Below are positions 28,345 to 47,329 of a DNA stretch of 64,000 nucleotides, piece after piece (position 1 is the stretch's first letter; each line of letters begins with the position of its first letter). Source of the DNA: Candidatus Amesbacteria bacterium GW2011_GWB1_47_19. GTDB taxonomy: Bacteria; Patescibacteriota; Microgenomatia; CAZETR01; Amesbacteraceae. The notes under the pieces are model-generated. The model ran no database searches. It saw only the letters and a list, made by a program, of their open reading frames with translations, and was not told the DNA's origin. The DNA lies in NCBI GenBank assembly GCA_001002325.1, contig LCNZ01000007.1, positions 26,763-90,762 of the forward strand, read 5' to 3'. The position numbers and the translations under genes are program-made.

Positions 28345-28833
28345 ATGATGGTGGGAAAAGATTATGAGAATTCCGACTGGTGGAAGTCTGCGGATAATCT
28401 GGTACGGGAACTGATGGCAGAGGCCTATATATTGCTGGAAAGGGAAACGAAGTCTCCGGACGGATTACATGATTATTCGTTTGTGGTGTTTCCGGCGGCT
28501 AAAGCGTATGAAGGTTTTTTGAAAAGAATTTTTTTGGATTTGGGACTGATCGGGAAGTTGCAATATTACGGCGAGCACTTCCGGATCGGCAGAGCCTTGT
28601 CTCCCAGTCTGCCCAAAAGATACCGCTCGGGATGGGTATTCGGAAAGCTGGTCGGGGTATGCGGAGGGGATGAGCTGCCCCTGAAAATGTGGGGAGTATG
28701 GAAAAAAGCCAGGAACAGAATTTTTCACTTTTTTCCCGATCACCGGGAATTTATTAACCTAAATGAAGCTGGAATATTAGTGAACGAAATTGCACAGATA
28801 ATGGATGAGACGCTGGCGGGATGTAAGAGATAG
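28345..28833 (+). CDS. Hypothetical protein with a possible HEPN-like Rx4H motif
   Basis: 162 aa; 'ARNRIFHF' fits R-x4-H; located immediately after a TA pair. Confidence 0.25.
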   Translation: MMVGKDYENSDWWKSADNLVRELMAEAYILLERETKSPDGLHDYSFVVFPAAKAYEGFLKRIFLDLGLIGKLQYYGEHFRIGRALSPSLPKRYRSGWVFGKLVGVCGGDELPLKMWGVWKKARNRIFHFFPDHREFINLNEAGILVNEIAQIMDETLAGCKR

Positions 28834-29605: not shown

Positions 29606-29634
29606 TTGACGCTAGTTATTTAGTGTCCTAATCT
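29606..29634 (+). promoter_or_regulatory. Sigma70-like promoter (TTGACG-17-TAATCT) upstream of nrdR
   Basis: Hexamers with 17-nt spacing, ~40 nt upstream of the nrdR ATG. Confidence 0.35.
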
Positions 29635-29642
29635 AGTTTGTG

Positions 29643-29658
29643 CCCCTAGATATAGGGG
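29643..29658. promoter_or_regulatory. Putative NrdR box (ccCCTAgATATAGGgg)
   Basis: 16-bp element matching the NrdR-box core CwAtATaTwG, placed between the promoter and the nrdR start. Confidence 0.4.
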
Positions 29659-29671
29659 TTTGAAATTTAAT

Positions 29672-30121
29672 ATGAAGTGTCCGTTTTGTGCTGCCAGCGA
29701 TACATCGGTGCTGGAATCCAGAGTAGCGGATGACGGACAGTCACTGCGTCGTCGGCGCGAATGCGCCAACTGCCAAAAGCGCTTTACCACTTTTGAGCGG
29801 GTGGAGGGGCCGACTATTTTCGTCATTAAAAGAGACGGCAGCCGCCAGCCTTTTGACAGGGACAAAATTGTCCATGGAGTGACCAGGTCTTTTGACAAAC
29901 GACCGGTTTCCATTGACCAGGTTAACCATCTGGCTGACGAAGTGGAACGGGAAGTCAGACGCCGGGAGGTGTCGGAAATGTCCAGTAAAGTTATTGGCAA
30001 AATGGTACTAAAAAGACTAAAAAATATTGACAAAGTTGCCTGGCTGCGGTTTGCCAGTGTGTATCTGGAGTTGTCAGATGTGACGGAATTTGAAAAGTTA
30101 TTGGAAAAAGTCGCTGTCTAA
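29672..30121 (+). CDS. nrdR: Transcriptional repressor NrdR
   Basis: 'MKCPFCAASDTSVLESR...CANCQKRFTTFE' zinc ribbon followed by an ATP-cone. Confidence 0.9.
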   Translation: MKCPFCAASDTSVLESRVADDGQSLRRRRECANCQKRFTTFERVEGPTIFVIKRDGSRQPFDRDKIVHGVTRSFDKRPVSIDQVNHLADEVEREVRRREVSEMSSKVIGKMVLKRLKNIDKVAWLRFASVYLELSDVTEFEKLLEKVAV

Positions 30122-34550: not shown

Positions 34551-36899
34551 ATGTTACCGGTGAATCTGACGGGGTTGTTGGTCCAGTTGGGAATTTTGGC
34601 GGCGGTGCTGGGAGCACTTGTTGTGCTGGGGATTTTCGGCGGATATGTGGGGATTGCTTTGTATCGGCACAAAGACCGGGAGGAAAAAAGCCTGCAAATG
34701 GTGGTGCTGCAAGTAGCTGTTCCCCGGGACAATGAAATCAAGATTGATGCCATGGAGCAGATATTTTCGAGCTTGTATTCGATCAAGAAAGGAAAGATGG
34801 GATGGTTCGGACTGCTGACATTTTTGCAGGTTCAGCCGCATATTAGCTTTGAGATAGTAGCGCGCAGGGAAGACATAAAATTTTATATCTCGGTGCCGGA
34901 TAAAATGCGGGATCTGGTGGAAAAACAAATCCACGGCGGTTATCCGGGGGCGGAGATAAAAATAGTGGAAGAGCCGACCATTTTTACCGATGAAGGACGG
35001 GTGGAATATGCCTGGATGGTGCTGCGTAATTCGGCGCATTATCCGATGAAAATATTTAAAGACCTGGCGACAGATCCGATGGCCTCCTTAACTTCGGCGA
35101 TGGCGAAAATGGGGGAAGGGGAGGGAGCGCATATCCAGATTCTGATATTTCCGGCCGAAAACAAATGGAAAGGCAAAGGCCGAGCATGGATCGGCAAGAC
35201 CAAGAAGAACGAGGCCAATCCGGAGAAAGCGTCGTACAAGGTTGATCCCAAAGTAATGGAGGCAGTGGACAATAAGATCAGCAAGGCCGGATTTATGACC
35301 ACCATCCGACTGGTAGTGACATCTGCGGATGCGGGGTCGGCTAAGGCACACATGGCAAATCTGAGAGCGGCTTTTGAACAATTTTCCGGAGACCTGAACG
35401 GATTTAAAAGTAAAAAAATAAGAATGAAAGGTAATTTTATGACGGACTTTATTTACCGTTATCAACCAATGGTGTGGTGGGGCAACTGGACGGTTTTAAA
35501 CAGTGAAGAACTGGCGACGATATATCATTTTCCCAACAAAACAATTGAAACCCCGCATATCCATTGGTTGAATGCCAAACGGGCACCGGCACCGCAGCAG
35601 ATTGCGTCTGAAGGCCTGTATATCGGTAAAAGCGTATTTCGGGGAATTACCCGGCCGGTATTTATTACCGATGAAGACCGGGAAAGGCATATGTATATAG
35701 TAGGCCGAACAGGGACGGGAAAAACGGAGTTTTTGAAGACCATGATTTTGCAGGATATCCAGGCGGGAAGGGGTGTGGCAGTTATTGATCCGCATGATCT
35801 GGCTGAGGATCTTTTAGGGTATATTCCACCGGAAAGGGCGGAGGACGTGATCTTTTTTGAACCATCGGATGAACAGTGGCCGATGGGGTTGAACCTGCTG
35901 GAGACACGCAACGAACAGGAAAGGCATATGGCAACCAACGCGGTAATAGGGATGATGTACAAACTGTATGATCCGCATAAAACCGGAATCATTGGACCGA
36001 GATTTGAACACGCTATCAGGAACGCAATGCTGACAGTGATGGATGCTATTCCCGGCGGGACATTTATCGAAGTGGTGCAGACACTGCAGCGGCCGGAATT
36101 CGTACAGGAAATGCTGCCGAGGGTGAAGGACCCGTTGGTGAGGAGGTATTGGACCGACCAGATAGCCCAAACGTCGGAATTTCATAAATCCGAAGTGCTG
36201 GATTATATCGTGTCCAAATTCGGCCGGTTCGTAACCAATAAAACTATCAGAAATATAATCGGACAGTCGGTGTCGGCGTTTGATTTCCGGAAAGTGATGG
36301 ATGAAGGGAGGATTCTGATCGTCAACCTGTCCAAAGGAAAACTGGGGGAGGAGAACAGCAACTTTCTGGGACTGGTGCTGGTGCCCCGGCTGCTGGCGGC
36401 AGCGATGAGCCGGGCGGATATGCCGGAGGCTTCCAGGCGGCCGTTTTATCTGTATGTGGATGAGTTCCAGAACTTTGCCACGCCGGATTTTGCCACCATT
36501 TTGTCCGAGGCCAGGAAATATAAACTGAATCTGACGGTGGCCAACCAATTTACTTCACAAATGGAGGATGAGGTAAAAAATGCGGTATTCGGCAACGTGG
36601 GAACTTTGATTTCGTTCCGGGTGGGGGTGGGAGACGCCAATTACCTGCAGCATGAATACAGCCCGACGTTTAACGAGGCGGATCTGTTAAATATCGAGAG
36701 ATACAATGTATTTATTAAAACGGTGGTGCATAACGAACCGGTACCGCCGTTTACTATGGATGTGACCAAGGATATTGATAAGGAAAGGAAGATGCGCAAT
36801 TCTCAACTGGCGGAGGCGATTAAAGAGTTGTCCCGGCTGAAATACGGGCGGGATGTGAGAATTGTAGAGGCGGAGATAGGAACCAGGTCGAAATTGTAA
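34551..36899 (+). CDS. VirD4/TraG/TraD-like type IV coupling ATPase (T4SS DNA-binding domain protein)
   Basis: N-terminal TM helix; Walker A 'GRTGTGKTEF'; 'LYVDEFQNFATPDFATILSEARKYKLNLTVANQ' matches the TraG/TraD C-terminal region. Confidence 0.6.
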   Translation: MLPVNLTGLLVQLGILAAVLGALVVLGIFGGYVGIALYRHKDREEKSLQMVVLQVAVPRDNEIKIDAMEQIFSSLYSIKKGKMGWFGLLTFLQVQPHISFEIVARREDIKFYISVPDKMRDLVEKQIHGGYPGAEIKIVEEPTIFTDEGRVEYAWMVLRNSAHYPMKIFKDLATDPMASLTSAMAKMGEGEGAHIQILIFPAENKWKGKGRAWIGKTKKNEANPEKASYKVDPKVMEAVDNKISKAGFMTTIRLVVTSADAGSAKAHMANLRAAFEQFSGDLNGFKSKKIRMKGNFMTDFIYRYQPMVWWGNWTVLNSEELATIYHFPNKTIETPHIHWLNAKRAPAPQQIASEGLYIGKSVFRGITRPVFITDEDRERHMYIVGRTGTGKTEFLKTMILQDIQAGRGVAVIDPHDLAEDLLGYIPPERAEDVIFFEPSDEQWPMGLNLLETRNEQERHMATNAVIGMMYKLYDPHKTGIIGPRFEHAIRNAMLTVMDAIPGGTFIEVVQTLQRPEFVQEMLPRVKDPLVRRYWTDQIAQTSEFHKSEVLDYIVSKFGRFVTNKTIRNIIGQSVSAFDFRKVMDEGRILIVNLSKGKLGEENSNFLGLVLVPRLLAAAMSRADMPEASRRPFYLYVDEFQNFATPDFATILSEARKYKLNLTVANQFTSQMEDEVKNAVFGNVGTLISFRVGVGDANYLQHEYSPTFNEADLLNIERYNVFIKTVVHNEPVPPFTMDVTKDIDKERKMRNSQLAEAIKELSRLKYGRDVRIVEAEIGTRSKL

Positions 36900-36944: not shown

Positions 36945-37016
36945 GGATCCGTAGCTCAACGGTAGAGCGGCTGTCTTATACACAGTATGTTGGAGGTTCG
37001 AATCCTCCCGGATCCA
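36945..37016 (+). tRNA. tRNA with anticodon TAT (reads AUA; tRNA-Ile(UAU)-like)
   Basis: Cloverleaf folded by hand: acceptor GGATCCG/CGGATCC, D-arm GCTC-AACGGTA-GAGC, anticodon stem GCTGT/ACAGT with loop CTTATAC, T-arm GGAGG-TTCGAAT-CCTCC. CCA is not encoded. Confidence 0.7.
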
Positions 37017-37144
37017 CAGATGCCGGGAGGCAACATTTGTTGTGCCCGGACCGCTTCAGGATGTTGTAGGTCAATCTTGGCCACAGAAGTTTACATCGGT
37101 TGTAAAATGGGCGGATGGCAGGCGGCAAGTTAGAACGATTAATA

Positions 37145-37405
37145 ATGAATTTGGGGGAAGAGTGTGTGAAGAGAAGTTTAAAATCCAGAGGGCTGGCCGT
37201 AGTAAAAGATGGAAAATGGACGCTGACCGACGACGGCAAATTGACTTTTTATCGGGAGCTGATAGAAGAAGAGGCGTCAAGAAGGAAAGTAGAAGTGACC
37301 GAAATTCCGGACTGGATAGCAGATATATTGGCCAGAAAAGCCGGATTTCAAAATGAACAAGAGGTGGCGAATCTGGTTGCAAGAAAATTGAGAGGGGAGA
37401 AGTGA
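37145..37405 (+). CDS. Small hypothetical protein
   Basis: 86 aa ORF from ATG 37145 (MNLGEECVKRSLK...); no recognisable motif. Confidence 0.25.
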   Translation: MNLGEECVKRSLKSRGLAVVKDGKWTLTDDGKLTFYRELIEEEASRRKVEVTEIPDWIADILARKAGFQNEQEVANLVARKLRGEK

Positions 37406-37418
37406 CAGATGCACCGGC

Positions 37419-38294
37419 TTACAGTTCTAGGAGGCGGGTGGTGGATTCGGTGACGTCGACGGTAATGTGGTCCAGATATTTCTGAGTGGAAGAGAGGCGG
37501 CGATGGCCGACGTGTTTGTGGACTATTTCCGGCTCCACGCCGTGCTTCAACTGGTGGGCGATAAAAGTGTGACGCAGATCATTGATTTTGGCATCTTTGA
37601 CACCGGCTTTGTGGAAATAGCGGCCAATGGCGGTGCGGATGTTTCTGACTAACAGCGGGCGTCCGGTTTTGGTAACAAACAGGTGGGGGTCGACGACTTT
37701 GGGGCGGATGGCCAGGTAATTGGTAACGGCTGAAATAGCCGGGCGGTTGAGAAAAATGTCCCGGGCGGGATTGTTTTCCAGAGACTGGATGTGGACTTCG
37801 GCCTTTTTGAGATCATCCACCCGGAGACTGGCCAGCTCCGATATGCGCATACCCGTTTGGAGGAGCAGCTCAATAATGGTGGAGATACGGATATCCAGAC
37901 GGGCGGCGTCGCGGAGGTTTCTGACTTCGGCGGGGGAAAGGAAGCGCGGAGGTTTGGTGTCGTACTTGGGGTGGATCAGGGGATGGGCGGGATTTTCGGT
38001 GACAATATCCTGATTCTGGAGGAATTTAAAAAAGGTTTTCAGAGAATTGATCTTGCGGCTGACGCTCTTTGGAGTGTAGTTTTTTGAGGCCAGATCCTGA
38101 ATGTAGCCTTCCAGATGTTCGGTACGCACGGTCGTAGCCTGGGTAATGCGATGGCTGTCCAGGTGTTTTCGGAGCTGCTGCAGGTCGCTGCCGTAAGCGG
38201 TGGTGGTAGCCGAGGATCGTTTTTGAGTTCGGAGGTGGGCCAGGAACTTCTCCAGGGCAGTCGTAAAACTTACCGGCTGGGGTAAATCTGTCAT
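37419..38294 (-). CDS. Tyrosine site-specific recombinase (XerC/XerD-like integrase)
   Basis: C-terminal catalytic 'RHTFIAHQLKHG...HVGHRRLSSTQKYLDH' (R..HxxR..Y) and an N-terminal SAM-like domain. Confidence 0.8.
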   Translation of the reverse strand: MTDLPQPVSFTTALEKFLAHLRTQKRSSATTTAYGSDLQQLRKHLDSHRITQATTVRTEHLEGYIQDLASKNYTPKSVSRKINSLKTFFKFLQNQDIVTENPAHPLIHPKYDTKPPRFLSPAEVRNLRDAARLDIRISTIIELLLQTGMRISELASLRVDDLKKAEVHIQSLENNPARDIFLNRPAISAVTNYLAIRPKVVDPHLFVTKTGRPLLVRNIRTAIGRYFHKAGVKDAKINDLRHTFIAHQLKHGVEPEIVHKHVGHRRLSSTQKYLDHITVDVTESTTRLLEL

Positions 38295-38378
38295 ATCTTA
38301 AGTCCCATAGTATGAGACTACAGGTCTATTTTACGCTAAATTAAGCTATTGTAAAGAGGGCTGTGGTAAATTAAGACT

Positions 38379-38753
38379 ATGCGTAAATCCGGGTGGAAAG
38401 GATGGATCCTGATAATTCTGGGTTCGGTGACAGCCGTGAGAACGGGGATGAATGTTTACAGACTGTGGCAGAGAGGGGGGAGAGTGGGTGAAACCAGGCA
38501 ACAGCTGGAGGCGGCGAAGGCGGAGAACCGGAGATTGCAGACGAAGCTGGAGGAGGTGCAGACTGATGAATTCGTCGAAAAGGAAGCCCGTGAGAAACTG
38601 GGGTACGGGAGGGAAGGTGAGACGGTTCTTATTTTGCCAAAACAGGATAATGCTCAGGGGCCAGTCATGCCTGCCGGCAGGCAGGTGCTCAGTACTCAGG
38701 AACCGGAAATTCCCAATTGGAGGAAGTGGTGGAAGCTGTATGTGAGGTTATAG
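38379..38753 (+). CDS. Septum formation initiator FtsB/DivIC-like
   Basis: N-terminal TM helix plus coiled coil (QQLEAAKAENRRLQTKLEEVQ) and 'EKEAREKLGY'. Confidence 0.65.
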   Translation: MRKSGWKGWILIILGSVTAVRTGMNVYRLWQRGGRVGETRQQLEAAKAENRRLQTKLEEVQTDEFVEKEAREKLGYGREGETVLILPKQDNAQGPVMPAGRQVLSTQEPEIPNWRKWWKLYVRL

Positions 38754-38775
38754 GGACTAGGTTCTAGGTATTAGG
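38750..38775. repeat. Intergenic TAGGTTCTAGG-type motif (copy 1)
   Basis: tagggactaggttctaggtattagg directly after the ftsB stop. Confidence 0.4.
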
Positions 38776-38791
38776 CATGGGACGCTGAGCG

Positions 38792-38867
38792 TGGTGGCTA
38801 CGGCTGGATTCGGACCAGCGATCCCTTGTTTATGATACAAGTGCTTTAACCACTAAGCTACGTAGCC
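38792..38867 (-). tRNA. tRNA-Met (anticodon CAT), elongator-type, CCA encoded
   Basis: Reverse complement gives GGCTACG-TA-GCTT-AGTGGTTA-AAGC...anticodon loop ATCATAA...T-arm GCTGG-TCCGAAT-CCAGC-CGTAGCC-A-CCA. The 1:72 position is a G-C pair. Confidence 0.8.
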
Positions 38868-39541
38868 AAGGTTTTTGCGAGACCATGTATCTCGCCGAGG
38901 ATTTTATAATAGATTCTGGCTGGCCGTTTAACTCTAATTGATAATGTGCCGTAGTGATCGTTAAAATTTTCAAAATCTTTTTTAAGTGGGTATTTTTTGA
39001 AGCTGGTTTTGGTAAAACTTTCGAGAGGAATTCCTGTTTGACTTGACCAATATTTTTTTACTATACCCTCTCGAATTTTATGAGTTTCGTTGATACCCAC
39101 ATAGCAAGATAATTCTTGCTTAGGTATTCGATAGCTCGATTTGAGCCAATTTATGTATGATTTTATCATTAGGGGATCAGAGTTGCATAGTTCTATTCTT
39201 CTTGCCTTTTTCGTTCCCTCGGACCAGTAGAGGCAAATCCCTGCGATTTTCCTTTCTTTGATTGACAGCCGACGAAACTCTTTTTCTCCATCATGGTTAT
39301 GTTTATTAATGAGTTCCAGCCTTCTCCTTTTCAAGATGAGGGAGTTCTTAAGACGGGCTTTATTTGATGCGGATATTTGGTCTGATTTGAGTTTATCTAC
39401 TTGCTCGGGTGAAAGAATAATATGTCTTGTCCATAGACTGGCAGTGCTTTTGGCCACATTAAGTGCTTTAGCAATATTTCTCACACTTGTTCCAGAAGTT
39501 CTTAATTTAATAGCCTCTATTCGTAAGGAACTCTTTGACAT
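38858..39541 (-). CDS. Free-standing HTH + LAGLIDADG-like homing-endonuclease-like protein (paralog A)
   Basis: N-terminal HTH (RTSGTSVRNIAKALNVAKSTASLW). C-terminal 'IAGICLYWSEG...CNSDPLMIKSYINWL...VGINETH...GTLSIRV'. The NSDP...I...L block resembles the '[17 protein letters not shown]' block of the FtsH intein endonuclease. Its 3' end overlaps the tRNA-Met by ~10 nt. Confidence 0.55.
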   Translation of the reverse strand: MSKSSLRIEAIKLRTSGTSVRNIAKALNVAKSTASLWTRHIILSPEQVDKLKSDQISASNKARLKNSLILKRRRLELINKHNHDGEKEFRRLSIKERKIAGICLYWSEGTKKARRIELCNSDPLMIKSYINWLKSSYRIPKQELSCYVGINETHKIREGIVKKYWSSQTGIPLESFTKTSFKKYPLKKDFENFNDHYGTLSIRVKRPARIYYKILGEIHGLAKTLAT

Positions 39542-39680
39542 CTATAGATATCATATTATTCGGTTTTTGTTTGGTTTGTCAAGAGTACTTTATTATTTAT
39601 TATTGAGCTACGCAGCCTCGAGAGCATTTTACCAAAAATCCGCTTTTGACTGGATGAGATCAGGACGGTTCTTCTAATAA

Positions 39681-40355
39681 CTAGTTATATTTTACTGCCA
39701 TAATTAGTCCTTTTATTTTCCTTAAAAGATCAGTACTTTTGAGAATCCTAATTCTCAATGTCCCAAAATAATTTTCCGGATGGTCATATGTTTTTTTCCA
39801 GGAGGTCTTTTGAAAAAAAGGTTTATAAAATTGGGTATTGGGGATACTAGTAATTTCCGACCAATACTTTTCGATTTCTTCAACCCGATGACTATGAGAT
39901 TCATTTATTCCGACCCTTAATCTGATTAAGTCTTTGGAAACAGATAGGGAATTGATTAACCATTCAATAATAAAGTTGATCATTTCCGGATCAGAATTGG
40001 CAAATCCGGCCATTTTGTCCTTCTTGAATCCCTCCGCCCAATATAAAGCAGTCCCTGCCAGAAGTTTTTCTCTGGCGCTCAGGTTAATTAGCATGTTTTT
40101 CGCTTCTGATCTGATTAGTTTTTCTTTGGTAAGTCTATACGCTTGTTGTTTTAGAGCATAAGAGAGTCTTCTTCCATAGTACGGATCCCTAGAGTTTTTC
40201 TCTAACTGAGATATTTGTTCAGGAGTGAGCTTAATATCTCTGCACCATAAACTGGCTGTACTGGTAGAGACAGCAAGATCCCGTGCAATTTCTTTGATAC
40301 TTTTCCCTTCGGATCTGAGATGCCTGGCTTCAGTCTTTTGTCTGGTTTTTGCCAT
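39681..40355 (-). CDS. Free-standing HTH + LAGLIDADG-like homing-endonuclease-like protein (paralog B)
   Basis: N-terminal HTH (RSEGKSIKEIARDLAVSTSTASLW); 'LLAGTALYWAEGFKK...ANSDPEMINFIIEWL...VGINESH...GTLRIRI'. Clear paralog of 38858..39541. Confidence 0.55.
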   Translation of the reverse strand: MAKTRQKTEARHLRSEGKSIKEIARDLAVSTSTASLWCRDIKLTPEQISQLEKNSRDPYYGRRLSYALKQQAYRLTKEKLIRSEAKNMLINLSAREKLLAGTALYWAEGFKKDKMAGFANSDPEMINFIIEWLINSLSVSKDLIRLRVGINESHSHRVEEIEKYWSEITSIPNTQFYKPFFQKTSWKKTYDHPENYFGTLRIRILKSTDLLRKIKGLIMAVKYN

Positions 40356-40396
40356 GGTAGAACTAACATACCTATTATCAGATATCGTTTTATTAT

Positions 40397-40425
40397 TGTC
40401 AAACCAGCTTCTGGATGATATGATT
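40397..40425 (+). promoter_or_regulatory. Candidate promoter (TTGTCA-17-TATGAT) for the intron-containing tRNA
   Basis: Hexamers with 17-nt spacing, ~25 nt upstream of the tRNA 5' end. Confidence 0.3.
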
Positions 40426-40448
40426 TGTGAGTTCTTTTATAAGGCGCG

Positions 40449-40711
40449 TGCGGGGTAGTGTAGAGCTGCACGGAAGGCTAGTAGTATGGGCCCCGCCGGT
40501 AGTAATACCGGTGCGCAAACTTGGCTATATCGGTGGACATCCTGAGCTTGTCGAAGGACAATACCGAGGCAACCTCGAAAGAGAGAGTCCGTAGAGACTA
40601 CACGCCAAGCACCCCGACGTTATGTCGGGGTGATGATATAGTCCGACTCCCCGAGTAATCGGGGTCAGAATGCATAATCTTCCAGACCGGGCGCGACTCC
40701 CGGCCCCGCAA
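40449..40711 (+). tRNA. tRNA-Met(CAU) (initiator-like acceptor stem) interrupted by a group I intron in the anticodon loop; exons 40449..40479 and 40673..40711
   Basis: Exon 1 reads TGCGGGG-TA-GTGT-AGAGCT-GCAC-G-GAAGG-CT and ends at U33. Exon 2 reads CATAA-TCTTC-CAGA-CCGGG-CGCGACT-CCCGG-CCCCGCA-A. The spliced anticodon loop is CUCAUAA. The acceptor GCGGGG/CCCCGC-A-A matches E. coli tRNA-fMet. Followed by a T-run. Confidence 0.65.
40480..40672 (+). ncRNA. Group I self-splicing intron (193 nt, no ORF) in the tRNA-Met anticodon loop
   Basis: P1: exon GGCU pairs with IGS GGCC (40489-92) with U·G at the splice site. P10: IGS UAUG pairs with the 3' exon start CAUA. P7 strands AGACUA (40595-600) and UAGUC (40639-43) flank the P8 hairpin CCCCGAC-GUUAU-GUCGGGG. 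P9 is CCCCGA-GUAA-UCGGGG with a GNRA loop. The terminal G is at 40672. The core resembles the Tetrahymena intron (GAUAUAGUCGGACC) and the Azoarcus tRNA-Ile intron (GUAGAGACUAGACGG). Confidence 0.65.
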
Positions 40712-44182: not shown

Positions 44183-47100
44183 ATGGCTACACTTCGCCAA
44201 GGTCCTACGGGTGGTACTAAGAAAAAGCTACCAGTGAGAGGTTTTATGCTGCAGCTGAACCTGGATTTCCAGAAACTGTTGTGGTTGCTGGTGGTGATAT
44301 TGATGGGATTGTCACTTTTGGAGCTGTGGAATAGCGGTAAGCAGACCAGCCAGGAAGTTCAACTGTCGCAAGCGCTGTCTGATATCAAAGACGGCAAGGT
44401 GGAGAAAGTGGAGATTTTCTCGGAACGGCTGTCGCTGAAATATAAAGACAGCAAAGACCAGTTTTTTTCCCGTAAGGAACCGGGGGAAAGTTTTACTGAG
44501 ATTCTGGAGAGGGCAAAGATCCCCGCAGAAGCTGTGCAGTATGAGATAAAAGATGAAACTTTCGGCCAGTTGATAGCGGCGGTATTGCCCAGCGTAATCG
44601 GGACGGGGGTGGTGCTGTTGGTTCTGTTGTATATGTTCCGGCAAGCCAGGGGTGCCCAGGATTCGGTATTTTCTTTCGGCCAGAGCCGGGCAAAATTGTT
44701 TGACAAGGGCAAACAAAGCGTGAAATTTTCGGACGTAGCCGGGGTGGACGAAGCCAAGAAAGAACTGGAAGAAGTGGTGGACTTTTTGAAAAGTCCGGGT
44801 AAATACCGGGCAGTAGGGGCCAGGACTCCCAAAGGGGCGCTTTTGGTGGGACCGTCGGGGGTGGGAAAGTGCGTGACCGGTGATACCATAATATGGACCA
44901 ATAAGGGATTGATGGAGATAAAAGAGGTCCCGCGTTACTATTATGTTGATACAAAATCGCATCGGGTTTACGGGGCAGGACTGGCTGGTTTTGATACGGA
45001 CAAGGTGATATCAAAGGATGAATTCGCTTCCCATTGGTACAATTTGGGTGAACAAGCAACCGTTAAAGTACAGTTGGCGCAGGGGTTTGATATAGAAGGG
45101 ACTCCCGAGCATCCGGTAGTAGTAATGGCCGGAGATGGCAAGTTACGATTTAGAAAATTACAGGATGTGAAACTGGGGGATTATGCTGCCCTGCAGTTTG
45201 GCAGAGGTATGTTTGGGAACTTACAAATGGTGGATGCAGACACGGCTTATCTGATGGGACTATTAACGGGAGATGGAAATATGAGTCATGCTAGTAGGGT
45301 GGGGTTGACTAATATTGATCCGGAAATAATCTCGTTTTTTGAAAATTATATAAAGAAGAGATATCCGGAGAATGCGATTACAGTGAGACAGCAGTCCTAT
45401 CTGGTGTCCAGTTGGCAATTTAAACGATCTCTTTATGAGATGGGGATGTCTTATCTGTTATCTTTTGATAAGAGTGTGCCGGTGACGATATTACAGGCAT
45501 CGAGAGGAATTCAGATAATGTTTTTGAGGGGTCTGTTTGATACTGACGCCAGTGTGGAGAAGAGCAGGGCGACGATAGAGTATACAACCGTTAGCGAAAA
45601 AATGGCTAAACAGATACAAATGATGCTATTGAATATGGGGGTGGTAGCCTATTTGAATGTCAAAGGAAAAACTGAAAATGGTTATTATCGGCCTGTTTAT
45701 CGTTTGAACATAACCGGGTCCCCGTTCGTGGAATTCAGCAGGCAAATTGGGTTCGGTTTGGTTAGAAAACAACGACTTTTGGAAAGGCATGTGGAGAAAA
45801 TGGGACGAGTGAATACTAATATTGATGTAATTCCCGGAGTCGGAGGGATGATAGAAGAAGCGTGGAGGTTGATTTCCGCTCGTAAGATGAGCAATGAAAA
45901 ACTATCAAAGACGGTTGATAAAGTGAGGAATAGGAATAGGGTTTCCAGACAAACACTAGAGGATTTTGTGGAGTATTCCAGCCAGACGGGAATGGAGATG
46001 CCTGACCTGGAGTATTTGGGAAATTTGTTGGAAGCTAAGCTGTTTTTTTCAAAAGTAGTAGAAAAAACGGAAAATAAGGGTGTGGTTTATGATTTTACCG
46101 TGCCTCAAACACATAGTTTTTTGGGAAACGGATTTGTAAATCATAATACACTGTTGGCCAGGGCGGTGGCGGGAGAAGCGGGAGTACCGTTTTTTTCAAT
46201 GGCAGGATCGGAGTTTATGGAAATGCTGGTGGGGGTGGGAAGTGCCCGGGTGAGGGATTTGTTTAACACAGCTAAAAAAGCAGCCCCGTCAATTATTTTT
46301 ATTGATGAAATTGACGCTATCGGAAGGCAGCGGGGACACGGGTTGATGGGTGGGCACGATGAAAGGGAACAAACATTGAATCAGATACTGGTGGAGATGG
46401 ACGGATTTACGCCTAATGATAATGTGGTGGTGCTGGCGGCAACAAACAGAGGGGATCTGCTGGATCCTGCACTTTTACGGCCCGGCAGGTTTGACCGGCG
46501 GGTGGTGGTGGATATGCCTGACATTGAAGGACGGAAAGCAATTCTGGCAATTTATGCCCGAAATAAACCAATAGCCGAAGGAGTGGATTGGAGTGCGGTG
46601 GCGAGAAGGACAGTCGGGTTTTCCGGAGCGGATCTGGAAAATATGCTGAATGAAGCGGCGATTGGTGTAGCCCGGGAAAACCACAAGACCATGACGATGC
46701 AGGATATCGAGGAAGCAGCTACGAAAGTAAAGCTGGGTCCGCAAAAGAAGCGGATGCAATCCGAGGAGGACCGGAAAATGACGGCTTACCATGAGGTGGG
46801 ACATGCGATTGTGACGTGGGCCCAACCGGGGATGGATCCGGTGCACAGGATATCGATTGTGTCGCGGGGAATGACATTGGGACATACGCTGGTGCCACCG
46901 TCGACGGACAGGGTACATGAGACTAAAAACCGGCTGTTGTCACAGGTGGCCATGATGCTGGGGGGAAGAGCTGCGGAAGAGATGGTTTTTTCCGAGGTCA
47001 CTACCGGTGCGGCTAATGATATTGATAAAGCCACCAGAGTAGCCCGGGATATGGTGATGGAGTACGGCATGAGCAGTCTGGGACCCGTCAATTACGGACC

Positions 47101-47329
47101 GCAGCAGGATATGGTGGAATGGGGACGGACTTATATTGAGCAGCCGCCTATTTCGCAGGAAATGCAGGCAAAGATTGATACGGAAGTAAAAAGAATCATG
47201 GACGAAGGATATCTGAAGGCGGTTGCCATATTAAAAAAATACCGGAAAAGGCTGGATGCCGTATCGCTGAGACTTCTGGAAATTGAAACTATGGACGGGG
47301 ATGAGTTTGAGAAGATCATGAAGGCGTAA
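44183..47329 (+). CDS. ftsH: ATP-dependent zinc metalloprotease FtsH, interrupted by an in-frame intein in the Walker A P-loop
   Basis: N-terminal TM helices, AAA motifs (GPSGVGK|...|[15 protein letters not shown], '[13 protein letters not shown]'), and the Zn-protease 'HEVGHAIV'. At 1048 aa it is too long because a 426-aa insert sits between GK and T of GxxGxGKT. Confidence 0.9.
44870..46147 (+). mobile_element. Intein (426 aa) with LAGLIDADG homing-endonuclease domain, inserted in the FtsH P-loop
   Basis: Begins with Cys1 (CVTGDTIIW) and contains a TxxH block B (GTPEHPV). The two LAGLIDADG motifs are '[12 protein letters not shown]' and '[12 protein letters not shown]'. The intein ends with ...VYDF...GFVNHN followed by the +1 Thr of the extein (TLLARAV). 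Confidence 0.85.

Follow-up and report, generated by a model that had tools for sequence, protein, structure and literature searches.

An intron-bearing tRNA gene and its free-standing neighbours

The window analysed here is a 64,000-nucleotide stretch of the genome of Candidatus Amesbacteria bacterium GW2011_GWB1_47_19 (contig LCNZ01000007.1, positions 26,763 to 90,762; coordinates below count from the first letter of the window, and + and - denote its strands). Between 36,945 and 40,711 it carries a dense locus of tRNA and protein genes, among them two free-standing genes whose products join a helix-turn-helix (HTH) to a LAGLIDADG-like domain and which lie between two tRNA genes with the anticodon CAU, one of them interrupted by a group I intron. 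An earlier note on this DNA had listed a tRNA(UAU), a recombinase, ftsB, a tRNA-Met, two endonuclease-like genes and an intron-bearing tRNA at this locus, and all of these are present at or close to where it had placed them.

As read from the sequence, the interrupted tRNA(CAU) gene consists of an exon 1 that ends in GGCU at U33 (40449..40479, +) and an exon 2 that runs from CAUAA to A73 and leaves the CCA end unencoded (40673..40711, +). Between positions 33 and 34 they are separated by a group I intron of 193 nucleotides (nt) that contains no open reading frame (ORF) (40480..40672, +) and matches Rfam model RF00028 with 71 bits against a gathering score of 50 (E = 5e-16). At the junctions (GGCU/A...G/CAUAA) the 5' exon closes in U and the last base of the intron is G. 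CAUA of the 3' exon (P10) and GGCU of the 5' exon (P1) can both pair with an internal guide, UAUG-GGCC (40485-40492); the AUGGGC(C) near the 5' end is kept in all homologues of the intron. When joined, the exons fold as tRNA-Met(CAU) in ARAGORN and are 95% identical to the intronless allele of L198, an Amesbacteria-like relative with an empty site, and in relatives with intronless alleles it is precisely the intron that is missing. In the unspliced window, ARAGORN with its intron search included did not detect this tRNA. Position 33/34 is the classical intron site of tRNA-fMet, and related tRNA introns of Patescibacteria splice in vitro (PMC13011429).

The earlier note had called this gene a tRNA-fMet with a group I intron. 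The intron is borne out by the Rfam match, and the tRNA is, to judge by its sequence, the probable initiator: its acceptor stem (GCGGGG/CCCCGC) and A73 are as in E. coli tRNA-fMet, and its anticodon is CAU. This label is supported because an elongator tRNA-Met lies adjacent, because AUA is served by a tRNA-Ile(UAU), and because the homologous locus L064 carries a fully canonical initiator (GGG/CCC) with the same intron. It is kept at "probable" because bases 1 and 72 are U and A, which can pair (in many homologues C1 faces A72), and because the three anticodon-stem G:C pairs are missing, their places being taken by A29-U41, G30-C40 and G31-U39. The tRNA is also unusual in its 3-bp D stem and in its T loop, CGCGACU.

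Divergent from the interrupted gene lies a free-standing gene for a 224-amino-acid (aa) protein of HTH and LAGLIDADG-like architecture (39681..40355, -), whose ORF is 100% identical to UX91_C0007G0088, annotated as a hypothetical protein. A second such gene (38858..39541, -; 227 aa; motif LYWSEG; GC content 0.376 against 0.484 for the window) is followed directly by an elongator-type tRNA-Met(CAU) (38792..38867, -), which was found by ARAGORN and scores 69.8 bits in Rfam. The two proteins are paralogous, with 37% identity, and fall into different clades, A and B, of the family described below. Promoter-like sites, identified by consensus match only, were found for the clade B gene (TTGACA-16-AATAAT, 39555..39582, -, 11/12 positions), for the clade A gene (TTGACA-17-GATAAT, 40402..40374, -, 11/12) and for the interrupted tRNA (TTGTCA-17-TATGAT, 40396..40424, +, 10/12). 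The latter two stand back to back (40374..40424) with overlapping -35 boxes, and the 47 nt 5' of the clade A gene are conserved in the sister species L001 (Amesbacteria GWA1_47_20).

Pfam and NCBIfam detect only the N-terminal HTH in the family proteins, and none of 37 aligned members matches Pfam LAGLIDADG_1, LAGLIDADG_2 or LAGLIDADG_3 at E <= 1. The 37-member alignment contains an invariant motif, LYWAEGFKKD, and the Glu of its YWxEG core is invariant in 110/110 family ORFs. In an AlphaFold2 (AF2) model with a mean predicted local distance difference test score (pLDDT) of 88.9, the HTH is followed by a long helix and then by an alpha-beta-beta-alpha-beta-beta-alpha domain, a LAGLIDADG fold made up by the C-terminal 130 residues, whose first helix (94-108) terminates at E108. 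Foldseek returned nothing significant for the family model; lower-Z structural matches were I-Vdi141I, I-CvuI, I-MsoI and I-CreI. When a profile of the family was compared with all PDB sequences, the only match was I-DmoI (E ~0.03), with LYWAEG aligned to LYVAEG, which contains the catalytic E117. Together, the modelled fold and the motif match to I-DmoI support the description of the two ORFs as homing-endonuclease-like, as the earlier note had proposed, at the level of fold and motif.

The family is large, comprising 606 clusters at 50% identity (E <= 1e-30), and a neighbour-joining tree of 110 family ORFs resolves three clades, each of which is tied to one tRNA gene. Clade A, with about 90 members including 39681-40355, lies beside the intron-bearing tRNA; clade B, with about 10 members including 38858-39541, has tRNA-Met(CAU) directly downstream; and the 8 members of clade C have tRNA-Ile(UAU) 2-23 nt downstream. 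In clade B the stop codon TAG is often provided by U8-A9-G10 of the tRNA-Met, as it is in the window, and the resulting 10-nt overlap of gene and tRNA-Met is identical in 7 clade B cases. Family genes are AT-rich relative to the rest of their locus in 85/86 loci (in the window, 0.37 against 0.48 GC).

Some family members (P0174, 560 aa; P0200, 532 aa; P0203, 576 aa; P0232; P0250) reach 400-576 aa in length, with two or three matches each to the 224-aa profile; these may be fused tandem copies or gene-calling fusions. Single-chain LAGLIDADG enzymes are believed to have arisen from homodimeric ones by tandem fusion. In L022 (503-1230, -), the tRNA(CAU) intron itself contains a canonical LAGLIDADG ORF of 168 aa (595-1101, -) that scores above threshold (LAGLIDADG_3, 28.5 bits; LAGLIDADG_1, 27.7 bits), and hhalign found no similarity between this ORF and the free-standing family.

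Linkage to the intron and turnover of tRNA alleles

Two sets of loci were compared. A scan of one genome per species yielded 80 loci with a family gene, all from Microgenomates lineages (Ames-, Gottesman-, Woese-, Roizman-, Shapiro-, Beckwith-, Davies- and Levybacteria), and a scan of metagenome contigs with exon 1 of tRNA(CAU) only, in which the protein was ignored, yielded 120 loci. The same exon 1 is present in 78 of the genome loci and in the 120 metagenome loci. Gene order across relatives was determined by tblastn with the window proteins, and metagenome loci were counted both leniently and strictly, the strict count demanding flanks of at least 900 nt on both sides. L003, L004, L010-L012 and some 30 other loci come from metagenome-assembled genomes titled "uncultured Gammaproteobacteria" or "Pseudomonadales" and show Microgenomates-specific synteny together with the protein family, so that these organism labels are evidently wrong.

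In 78/80 genome loci, a tRNA profile located the intron-bearing tRNA at a distance of 50-130 nt from where the family gene begins, usually in divergent orientation; the two remaining contigs end about 100 nt upstream, and thus all usable loci (78/78) show this arrangement. In the window, the clade A gene starts 93 nt from the 5' end of the tRNA. The exon 1-based metagenome sample, in which intronless alleles are common and share the same synteny, gave lenient counts of 15 loci with intron and gene, 13 with the intron only, 1 with the gene only and 37 with neither (p = 1.7e-6, Fisher's exact test). Under the strict count these numbers were 8, 13, 0 and 37 (p = 1e-4), so that the gene stands beside 8/21 intron-bearing alleles and 0/37 intronless ones; both tests ignore kinship, that is, the phylogenetic non-independence that comes with shared ancestry. 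The presence of the clade A gene thus depends on that of the intron.

Intron and gene are polymorphic among close relatives. Loci in different states have Xer recombinases that are 98.5% (L139, intron and gene, versus L177, intron only), 91% (L055, both, versus L086, neither) or 92% identical (L118, neither, versus L129, intron only), and between L001 (both) and L198 (neither) the tryptophanyl-tRNA synthetases (TrpRS) are 86% identical. In collinear pairs, the intron and a gene cassette of about 720 bp form separate clean indels 60-90 bp apart, and no flanking repeats or target duplications were seen at the cassette junctions of L055/L086 and L028/L177. Between L028 and L177 the intron shows 72% identity and the flanks 83-86%. 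A tblastn search with 11 diverse queries (E < 0.1) found no decayed gene remnants beside intron-only alleles.

The window tRNA-Met differs from those of the nearest relatives, L001 and L198, the latter of which has an intronless tRNA(CAU), a 122-nt spacer and then its tRNA-Met. Between the two family genes of the window lies a relic of tRNA-Met positions 1-16, GGCTGCGTAGCTCAAT (39602..39617, -), which matches the tRNA-Met of these relatives; it is 16/16 identical to the tRNA-Met start of L198 and 15/16 to that of L001, is the sole extra match to a tRNA-Met start in the window, and among 41 family genes with a downstream tRNA is the only such relic upstream of the gene. A 16-nt relic together with a different present-day allele implies that the native tRNA-Met was cut short at 16/17 and superseded by the clade B gene and a foreign tRNA-Met; the window tRNA-Met was probably imported, the clade B gene having brought this allele along.

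Elsewhere, 5' parts of tRNA-Met are found upstream of complete, different alleles in L021 (4786-4822), L086 (6070-6087 and 6111-6147), L088 (~1285-1327, -) and L163 (~2020-2062, -). Most tRNA-Met 5' relics stop right after the anticodon, at about position 37, and one stops in the D loop; some may share ancestry. The relics suggest that alleles have been replaced repeatedly, with the breaks falling in the anticodon loop. LAGLIDADG homing endonucleases make site-specific double-strand cuts that leave 4-nt 3' overhangs, and the distance from the intron site (33/34) to the ends of the relics (about 37/38) is 4 nt, a spacing that equals this stagger and is suggestive only.

The arrangement of the module itself varies. 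The tRNA(CAU) and clade A genes are divergent in the window (40449-40711) and co-directional in L001 (3676-3867), and across the class the whole module of tRNA and gene is found in either orientation between FtsB and TrpRS. The intron at this L001 locus is missing about 72 nt, corresponding approximately to window 40541-40612 in the P5-P7 region, and may therefore be unable to splice; the copy could be a pseudogene, another initiator gene could exist elsewhere, or the assembly could be wrong here. In a comparison of blastn segments, L139 and L177 are homologous to the end of ftsB and then wholly different, the module being non-homologous there: beyond ftsB they differ in intron variant, gene presence, tRNA-Met allele and TrpRS type, which marks the tRNA module as a recombination boundary unless one contig is chimeric. 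In L008, about 1.9 kb from the module, a tRNA-Asn(GUU) gene (1842-2126) contains a 211-nt anticodon-loop intron; introns like it, of the 35/36 type, have already been described for Patescibacteria (PMC13011429).

Homing as a candidate mode of spread

We propose, with a probability of roughly 0.6, that the clade A and clade B proteins are free-standing homing endonucleases, of which the former would take part in collaborative homing with the intron and the latter in intronless homing at tRNA-Met. Both tRNA(CAU) genes of the window would then have been colonised by homing-type selfish elements. The 193-nt intron would have to splice from the pre-tRNA of the probable initiator, and the clade A protein, expressed from its own promoter, would act as a homodimer of subunits with a single LAGLIDADG-type domain each. 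Its presumed nuclease activity would be directed at intronless copies of tRNA(CAU), which it would cut at, or close to, the point of intron insertion in the anticodon arm; this arm, a natural pseudo-palindrome, would suit a homodimer. Since the intron splits this putative target site on its own chromosome, the resident gene would be protected from cutting. The empty-site DNA of a relative would be cut, and repair of the break would copy the intron and the adjacent gene into it, as in collaborative (trans) homing. The clade B gene would carry its own, presumably resistant, tRNA-Met allele, with which it would have replaced the native tRNA-Met down to its first 16 nt, and clades B and C would both represent intronless homing in which a resistant tRNA allele is taken along. 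That these two clades lie beside intronless tRNAs and yet keep the motif implies that the basic role of the family is not splicing.

Several observations weigh against this proposal. About half of the intron-bearing alleles have neither the gene nor remnants of it, and with the gene so cleanly missing the intron may predate it or be independent of it. The family protein is as conserved as Xer, and its nearest neighbour carries the same taxonomic label in 28/34 cases, as does that of Xer in 21/26 and that of FtsB in 19/21; such taxonomic tracking fits homology-limited transfer among relatives and also fits domestication. This nearest-neighbour test took the place of correlating the distance matrix of the endonuclease-like protein with those of Xer, TrpRS, VirD4 and FtsB: at such divergence even pairs of housekeeping proteins show only weak correlation (0.2-0.65), so that the matrices gave no information. 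Furthermore, in L195 the allele beside a clade B-like gene is intronless, L022 has an adjacent clade A free-standing gene in addition to its intron-encoded LAGLIDADG ORF, and no family members were found on IMG/VR viral contigs.

The dependence of the clade A gene on the intron would also be expected if its product were a maturase, a LAGLIDADG-derived RNA-binding cofactor encoded beside the intron that aids its folding and splicing. LAGLIDADG proteins are classic group I maturases (I-AniI, bI3 maturase), the gene occurs essentially only beside intron-bearing alleles, where it is vertically stable and well conserved, and an essential single-copy tRNA would make efficient splicing valuable. Yet the gene is cleanly absent from about half of the intron-bearing alleles, whose introns are similarly long, the intron scores well over the Rfam threshold as a complete ribozyme, the N-terminal domain is an HTH of the DNA type, and clades B and C flank intronless tRNA-Met and tRNA-Ile(UAU) with the same motif and architecture; we regard a maturase as improbable. 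The Glu at the catalytic position, invariant in every family ORF, argues against it as well, and bears equally on the idea that the proteins are domesticated, non-catalytic, WhiA-like DNA-binding regulators of the divergent or downstream tRNA promoters, since it is the acidic residue that WhiA has lost. All 37 well-flanked intronless alleles of this tRNA, in the same synteny, do without the gene, and its state differs between backgrounds whose Xer proteins are 91-98% identical. The AT-richness of the genes in nearly all loci and the window relic, which indicates that the clade B gene came with foreign DNA, speak in the same direction, and this explanation too seems to us improbable.

Other kinds of mobile DNA fit the locus still less well. 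The first 60-130 residues of the proteins weakly match IS630, IS3 and IS21 transposases (NCBIfam, E 3e-4 to 7e-3), and Pfam gives matches to HTH_Tnp-type domains and TnsD, as would be seen if the two ORFs were remnants of insertion sequences or transposons in which the HTH is a transposase N-terminus and the tRNA linkage a target preference. They contain no DDE or other transposase catalytic domain, however, the C-terminal 130 residues being a LAGLIDADG fold instead; the cassettes lack terminal inverted repeats and target-site duplications, and their position relative to the tRNA is fixed in 78 genomes, all of which makes such an origin very improbable. Least probable of all, in our estimation, is what the earlier note had suggested, a tRNA-targeted integration hot spot or the remnant of a domesticated integrative or conjugative element. 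A tyrosine recombinase and a VirD4-like ATPase do flank tRNA genes here, and GC content falls across 38.85-40.35 kb; but the low-GC segment consists only of the two endonuclease-like genes, and Xer, FtsB, the VirD4-like gene and tRNA-Ile(UAU) are syntenic even where intron and endonuclease-like genes are missing. Direct and inverted repeats were searched for in 33-44 kb with no convincing result, and the 3' ends of the three tRNAs recur nowhere else in the 64 kb, even with up to 3 mismatches allowed; with no att-like repeats detected, integrase-type insertion was rejected. Pfam scans of ten flanking ORFs, which encode penicillin-binding proteins, a class II ribonucleotide reductase, a cobalamin adenosyltransferase, FtsH, a 5'-3' exonuclease and glycosyltransferases, revealed no VirB or pilus genes of a type IV secretion system, upstream genes of which the note had thought worth looking for. 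Synteny, att-like repeats and the Xer-type best matches of the recombinase, the three points on which the suggestion was to be judged, thus all came out against it and refute it. What stands of it is that the locus contains mobile DNA, in the form of homing-type genes and an intron.

If the family proteins are indeed homing endonucleases, the clades could be parts of one larger phenomenon: a lineage of homing endonucleases, hitherto overlooked and abundant (600 clusters or more at 50% identity), with clade-specific cutting in the anticodon loop, which drives both the spread of introns and the replacement of tRNA alleles. We offer this broader reading tentatively and consider it rather unlikely. 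Were it true, each clade would be dedicated to one gene, that of the probable initiator, the elongator tRNA-Met or tRNA-Ile(UAU), and the family would drive wholesale replacement of essential tRNA alleles. The spread of ORF-less tRNA introns would be the first instance of collaborative homing outside phages, on the chromosome of a cell. The initiator-tRNA intron would serve as an immunity insertion that makes the gene resistant to cutting, which would explain its retention in tiny genomes of the candidate phyla radiation (CPR).

Collaborative homing has precedents in F-CphI, which is paired with an ORF-less psbA intron in cyanophage S-PM2, and in mobE, which is paired with an nrdB intron in phage T4 (PMC3984707, PMC6083498, PMC2790892). 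As in these systems, gene and intron co-occur in the present family, and empty, intron-only and intron-plus-gene states are found among relatives. F-CphI and mobE, however, belong to phages, concern protein-coding genes, and are Endo VII-type or HNH enzymes for which cutting at the point of intron insertion has been demonstrated, whereas the window represents a bacterial chromosome, a tRNA gene and an HTH plus LAGLIDADG-like candidate enzyme. A parallel in target is I-Ssp6803I, which, as it is cited in later accounts, is intron-encoded and targets the anticodon region of cyanobacterial tRNA-fMet genes at 33/34 (Bonocora & Shub 2001, ref. 105 in PMC3984707; PMC13011429). Both systems have a group I intron at 33/34 of a tRNA(CAU) gene, but I-Ssp6803I is a PD-(D/E)XK enzyme encoded inside its intron, whereas the window intron is ORF-less and the LAGLIDADG-like candidate lies outside the tRNA gene.

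The family also differs from known LAGLIDADG proteins. Unlike I-CreI, I-CeuI, I-MsoI and I-DmoI, its members have no Pfam LAGLIDADG match and possess an extra N-terminal HTH of the resolvase type and a long linker helix, and they are encoded by free-standing genes and not within introns or inteins. WhiA, which is universal in Gram-positives, has two degenerate LAGLIDADG domains without the catalytic acids and a C-terminal HTH, while the family has a single domain with an invariant Glu, carries its HTH at the N-terminus and is distributed patchily and in linkage with the intron. SegB, a GIY-YIG enzyme of phage T4, performs intronless homing in a tRNA gene region; like it, the clade B gene stands directly beside a tRNA gene and was apparently co-converted together with a foreign tRNA allele (relic 39602-39617), and unlike it, the clade B candidate is LAGLIDADG-like, resides in a cellular chromosome and has its stop codon inside the tRNA gene. 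Intronless homing by free-standing endonucleases near tRNA genes is treated more broadly elsewhere (PMC13096335, PMC2988022).

Group I introns in Patescibacteria tRNA genes and their 33/34 site were already known, as was the failure of annotation tools to find such tRNAs (PMC13011429). In that survey endonuclease genes were sought only inside introns longer than 500 bp, most tRNA introns were without them, horizontal transfer was inferred to be limited, and adjacent or free-standing genes went unmentioned (PMC13011429). The present case concerns the same phylum and kind of intron, with the candidate gene outside the tRNA gene. Our literature searches found no description of the family or of collaborative homing in a cellular chromosome; what is new is the protein architecture and its setting, and the strategy itself is known. 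Patescibacteria have some of the smallest bacterial genomes and yet keep group I introns in essential tRNA genes, and in one large class a candidate endonuclease gene just outside the tRNA gene provides a testable mechanism for the spread and persistence of such "ORF-less" introns. If the proposal is correct, collaborative homing, so far exemplified by two phage systems, would reach into cellular chromosomes, and the LAGLIDADG superfamily would gain an unannotated family whose members now pass as hypothetical or HTH proteins; compact enzymes with tRNA-gene targets could also interest genome engineers. For annotators, two points follow from the locus: standard tRNA finders overlook the sole initiator-type tRNA that these genomes have, and a Xer gene beside tRNAs is no evidence of an island.

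The conserved chromosomal block around the module

The surroundings of the module are core chromosome of a CPR/Microgenomates bacterium. The order VirD4-like ATPase, tRNA-Ile(UAU), Xer, FtsB, tRNA(CAU) module, TrpRS, small protein and FtsH recurs in dozens of Microgenomates genomes and in metagenome contigs, around intronless alleles as well, and with this class-wide synteny Xer, FtsB, the VirD4-like gene and tRNA-Ile(UAU) are not variably present as members of an element would be. Variable DNA is limited to about 38.8-40.7 kb and is of the homing rather than the integrase type. The FtsB/DivIC-family septum protein (38379..38753, +; Pfam DivIC, 43.1 bits against a gathering score of 28.9) is encoded outside this stretch and is syntenic in 49/80 genome loci; ftsB is therefore part of the core chromosome and not, as the earlier note had it, embedded in a domesticated element.

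Next to ftsB lies the gene for a tyrosine recombinase (37419..38294, -) that matches Pfam Phage_integrase with 96 bits and has an N-terminal SAM-like domain, Phage_int_SAM_1. Its best NCBIfam matches are XerC (158 bits), XerD (154) and XerA (148), each under its cut-off; since the equivalog cut-offs of XerC and XerD (335 and 330 bits) are not reached, we name it Xer-type and neither XerC nor XerD. It adjoins FtsB in 48/80 genome loci and in many metagenome loci, intronless ones included. The VirD4/TraD-like P-loop ATPase (34551..36899, +), which has an N-terminal membrane segment, owes its name to marginal matches (Pfam TraG-D_C, TrwB_AAD_bind and FtsK, all at about 25 bits; NCBIfam SXT_TraD, 59 bits against a cut-off of 366) and serves here as context only. 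It occupies the same position, with 56-83% identity, in 31/80 genome loci and is a conserved core gene of the class and not part of a mobile element. Downstream of it, tRNA-Ile(UAU) (36945..37017, +; ARAGORN; Rfam tRNA, 74.6 bits) is kept 1.4-3.3 kb from the tRNA(CAU) module in 33/80 loci. A tRNA-Ile with the anticodon UAU is rare in bacteria, and that the whole class keeps it in this place implies decoding of AUA without a lysidine-modified tRNA-Ile2.

Further from the module, an 84-nt "tRNA-Asp" reported by ARAGORN at 29843-29926 (-) lies inside an NrdR-like ORF (29620-30033, -) and has no Rfam match even at E <= 1; it was discarded as a false positive. A small ORF at 28345-28833 (+) has sub-threshold matches to HEPN_RnaseLS (24.8 bits) and RnlA-toxin_DBD (23.7 bits) and may be a fragment of an RnlA/RNase LS toxin. 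On the other side, the FtsH gene (44183-47329, +) is interrupted at about aa 279-655, roughly nt 45017-46147, by an intein whose canonical LAGLIDADG_3 endonuclease domain scores 71.9 bits and which matches Intein_splicing with 49.5 bits, and relatives match FtsH in two separate pieces; this intein is a second, independent homing element in the window.

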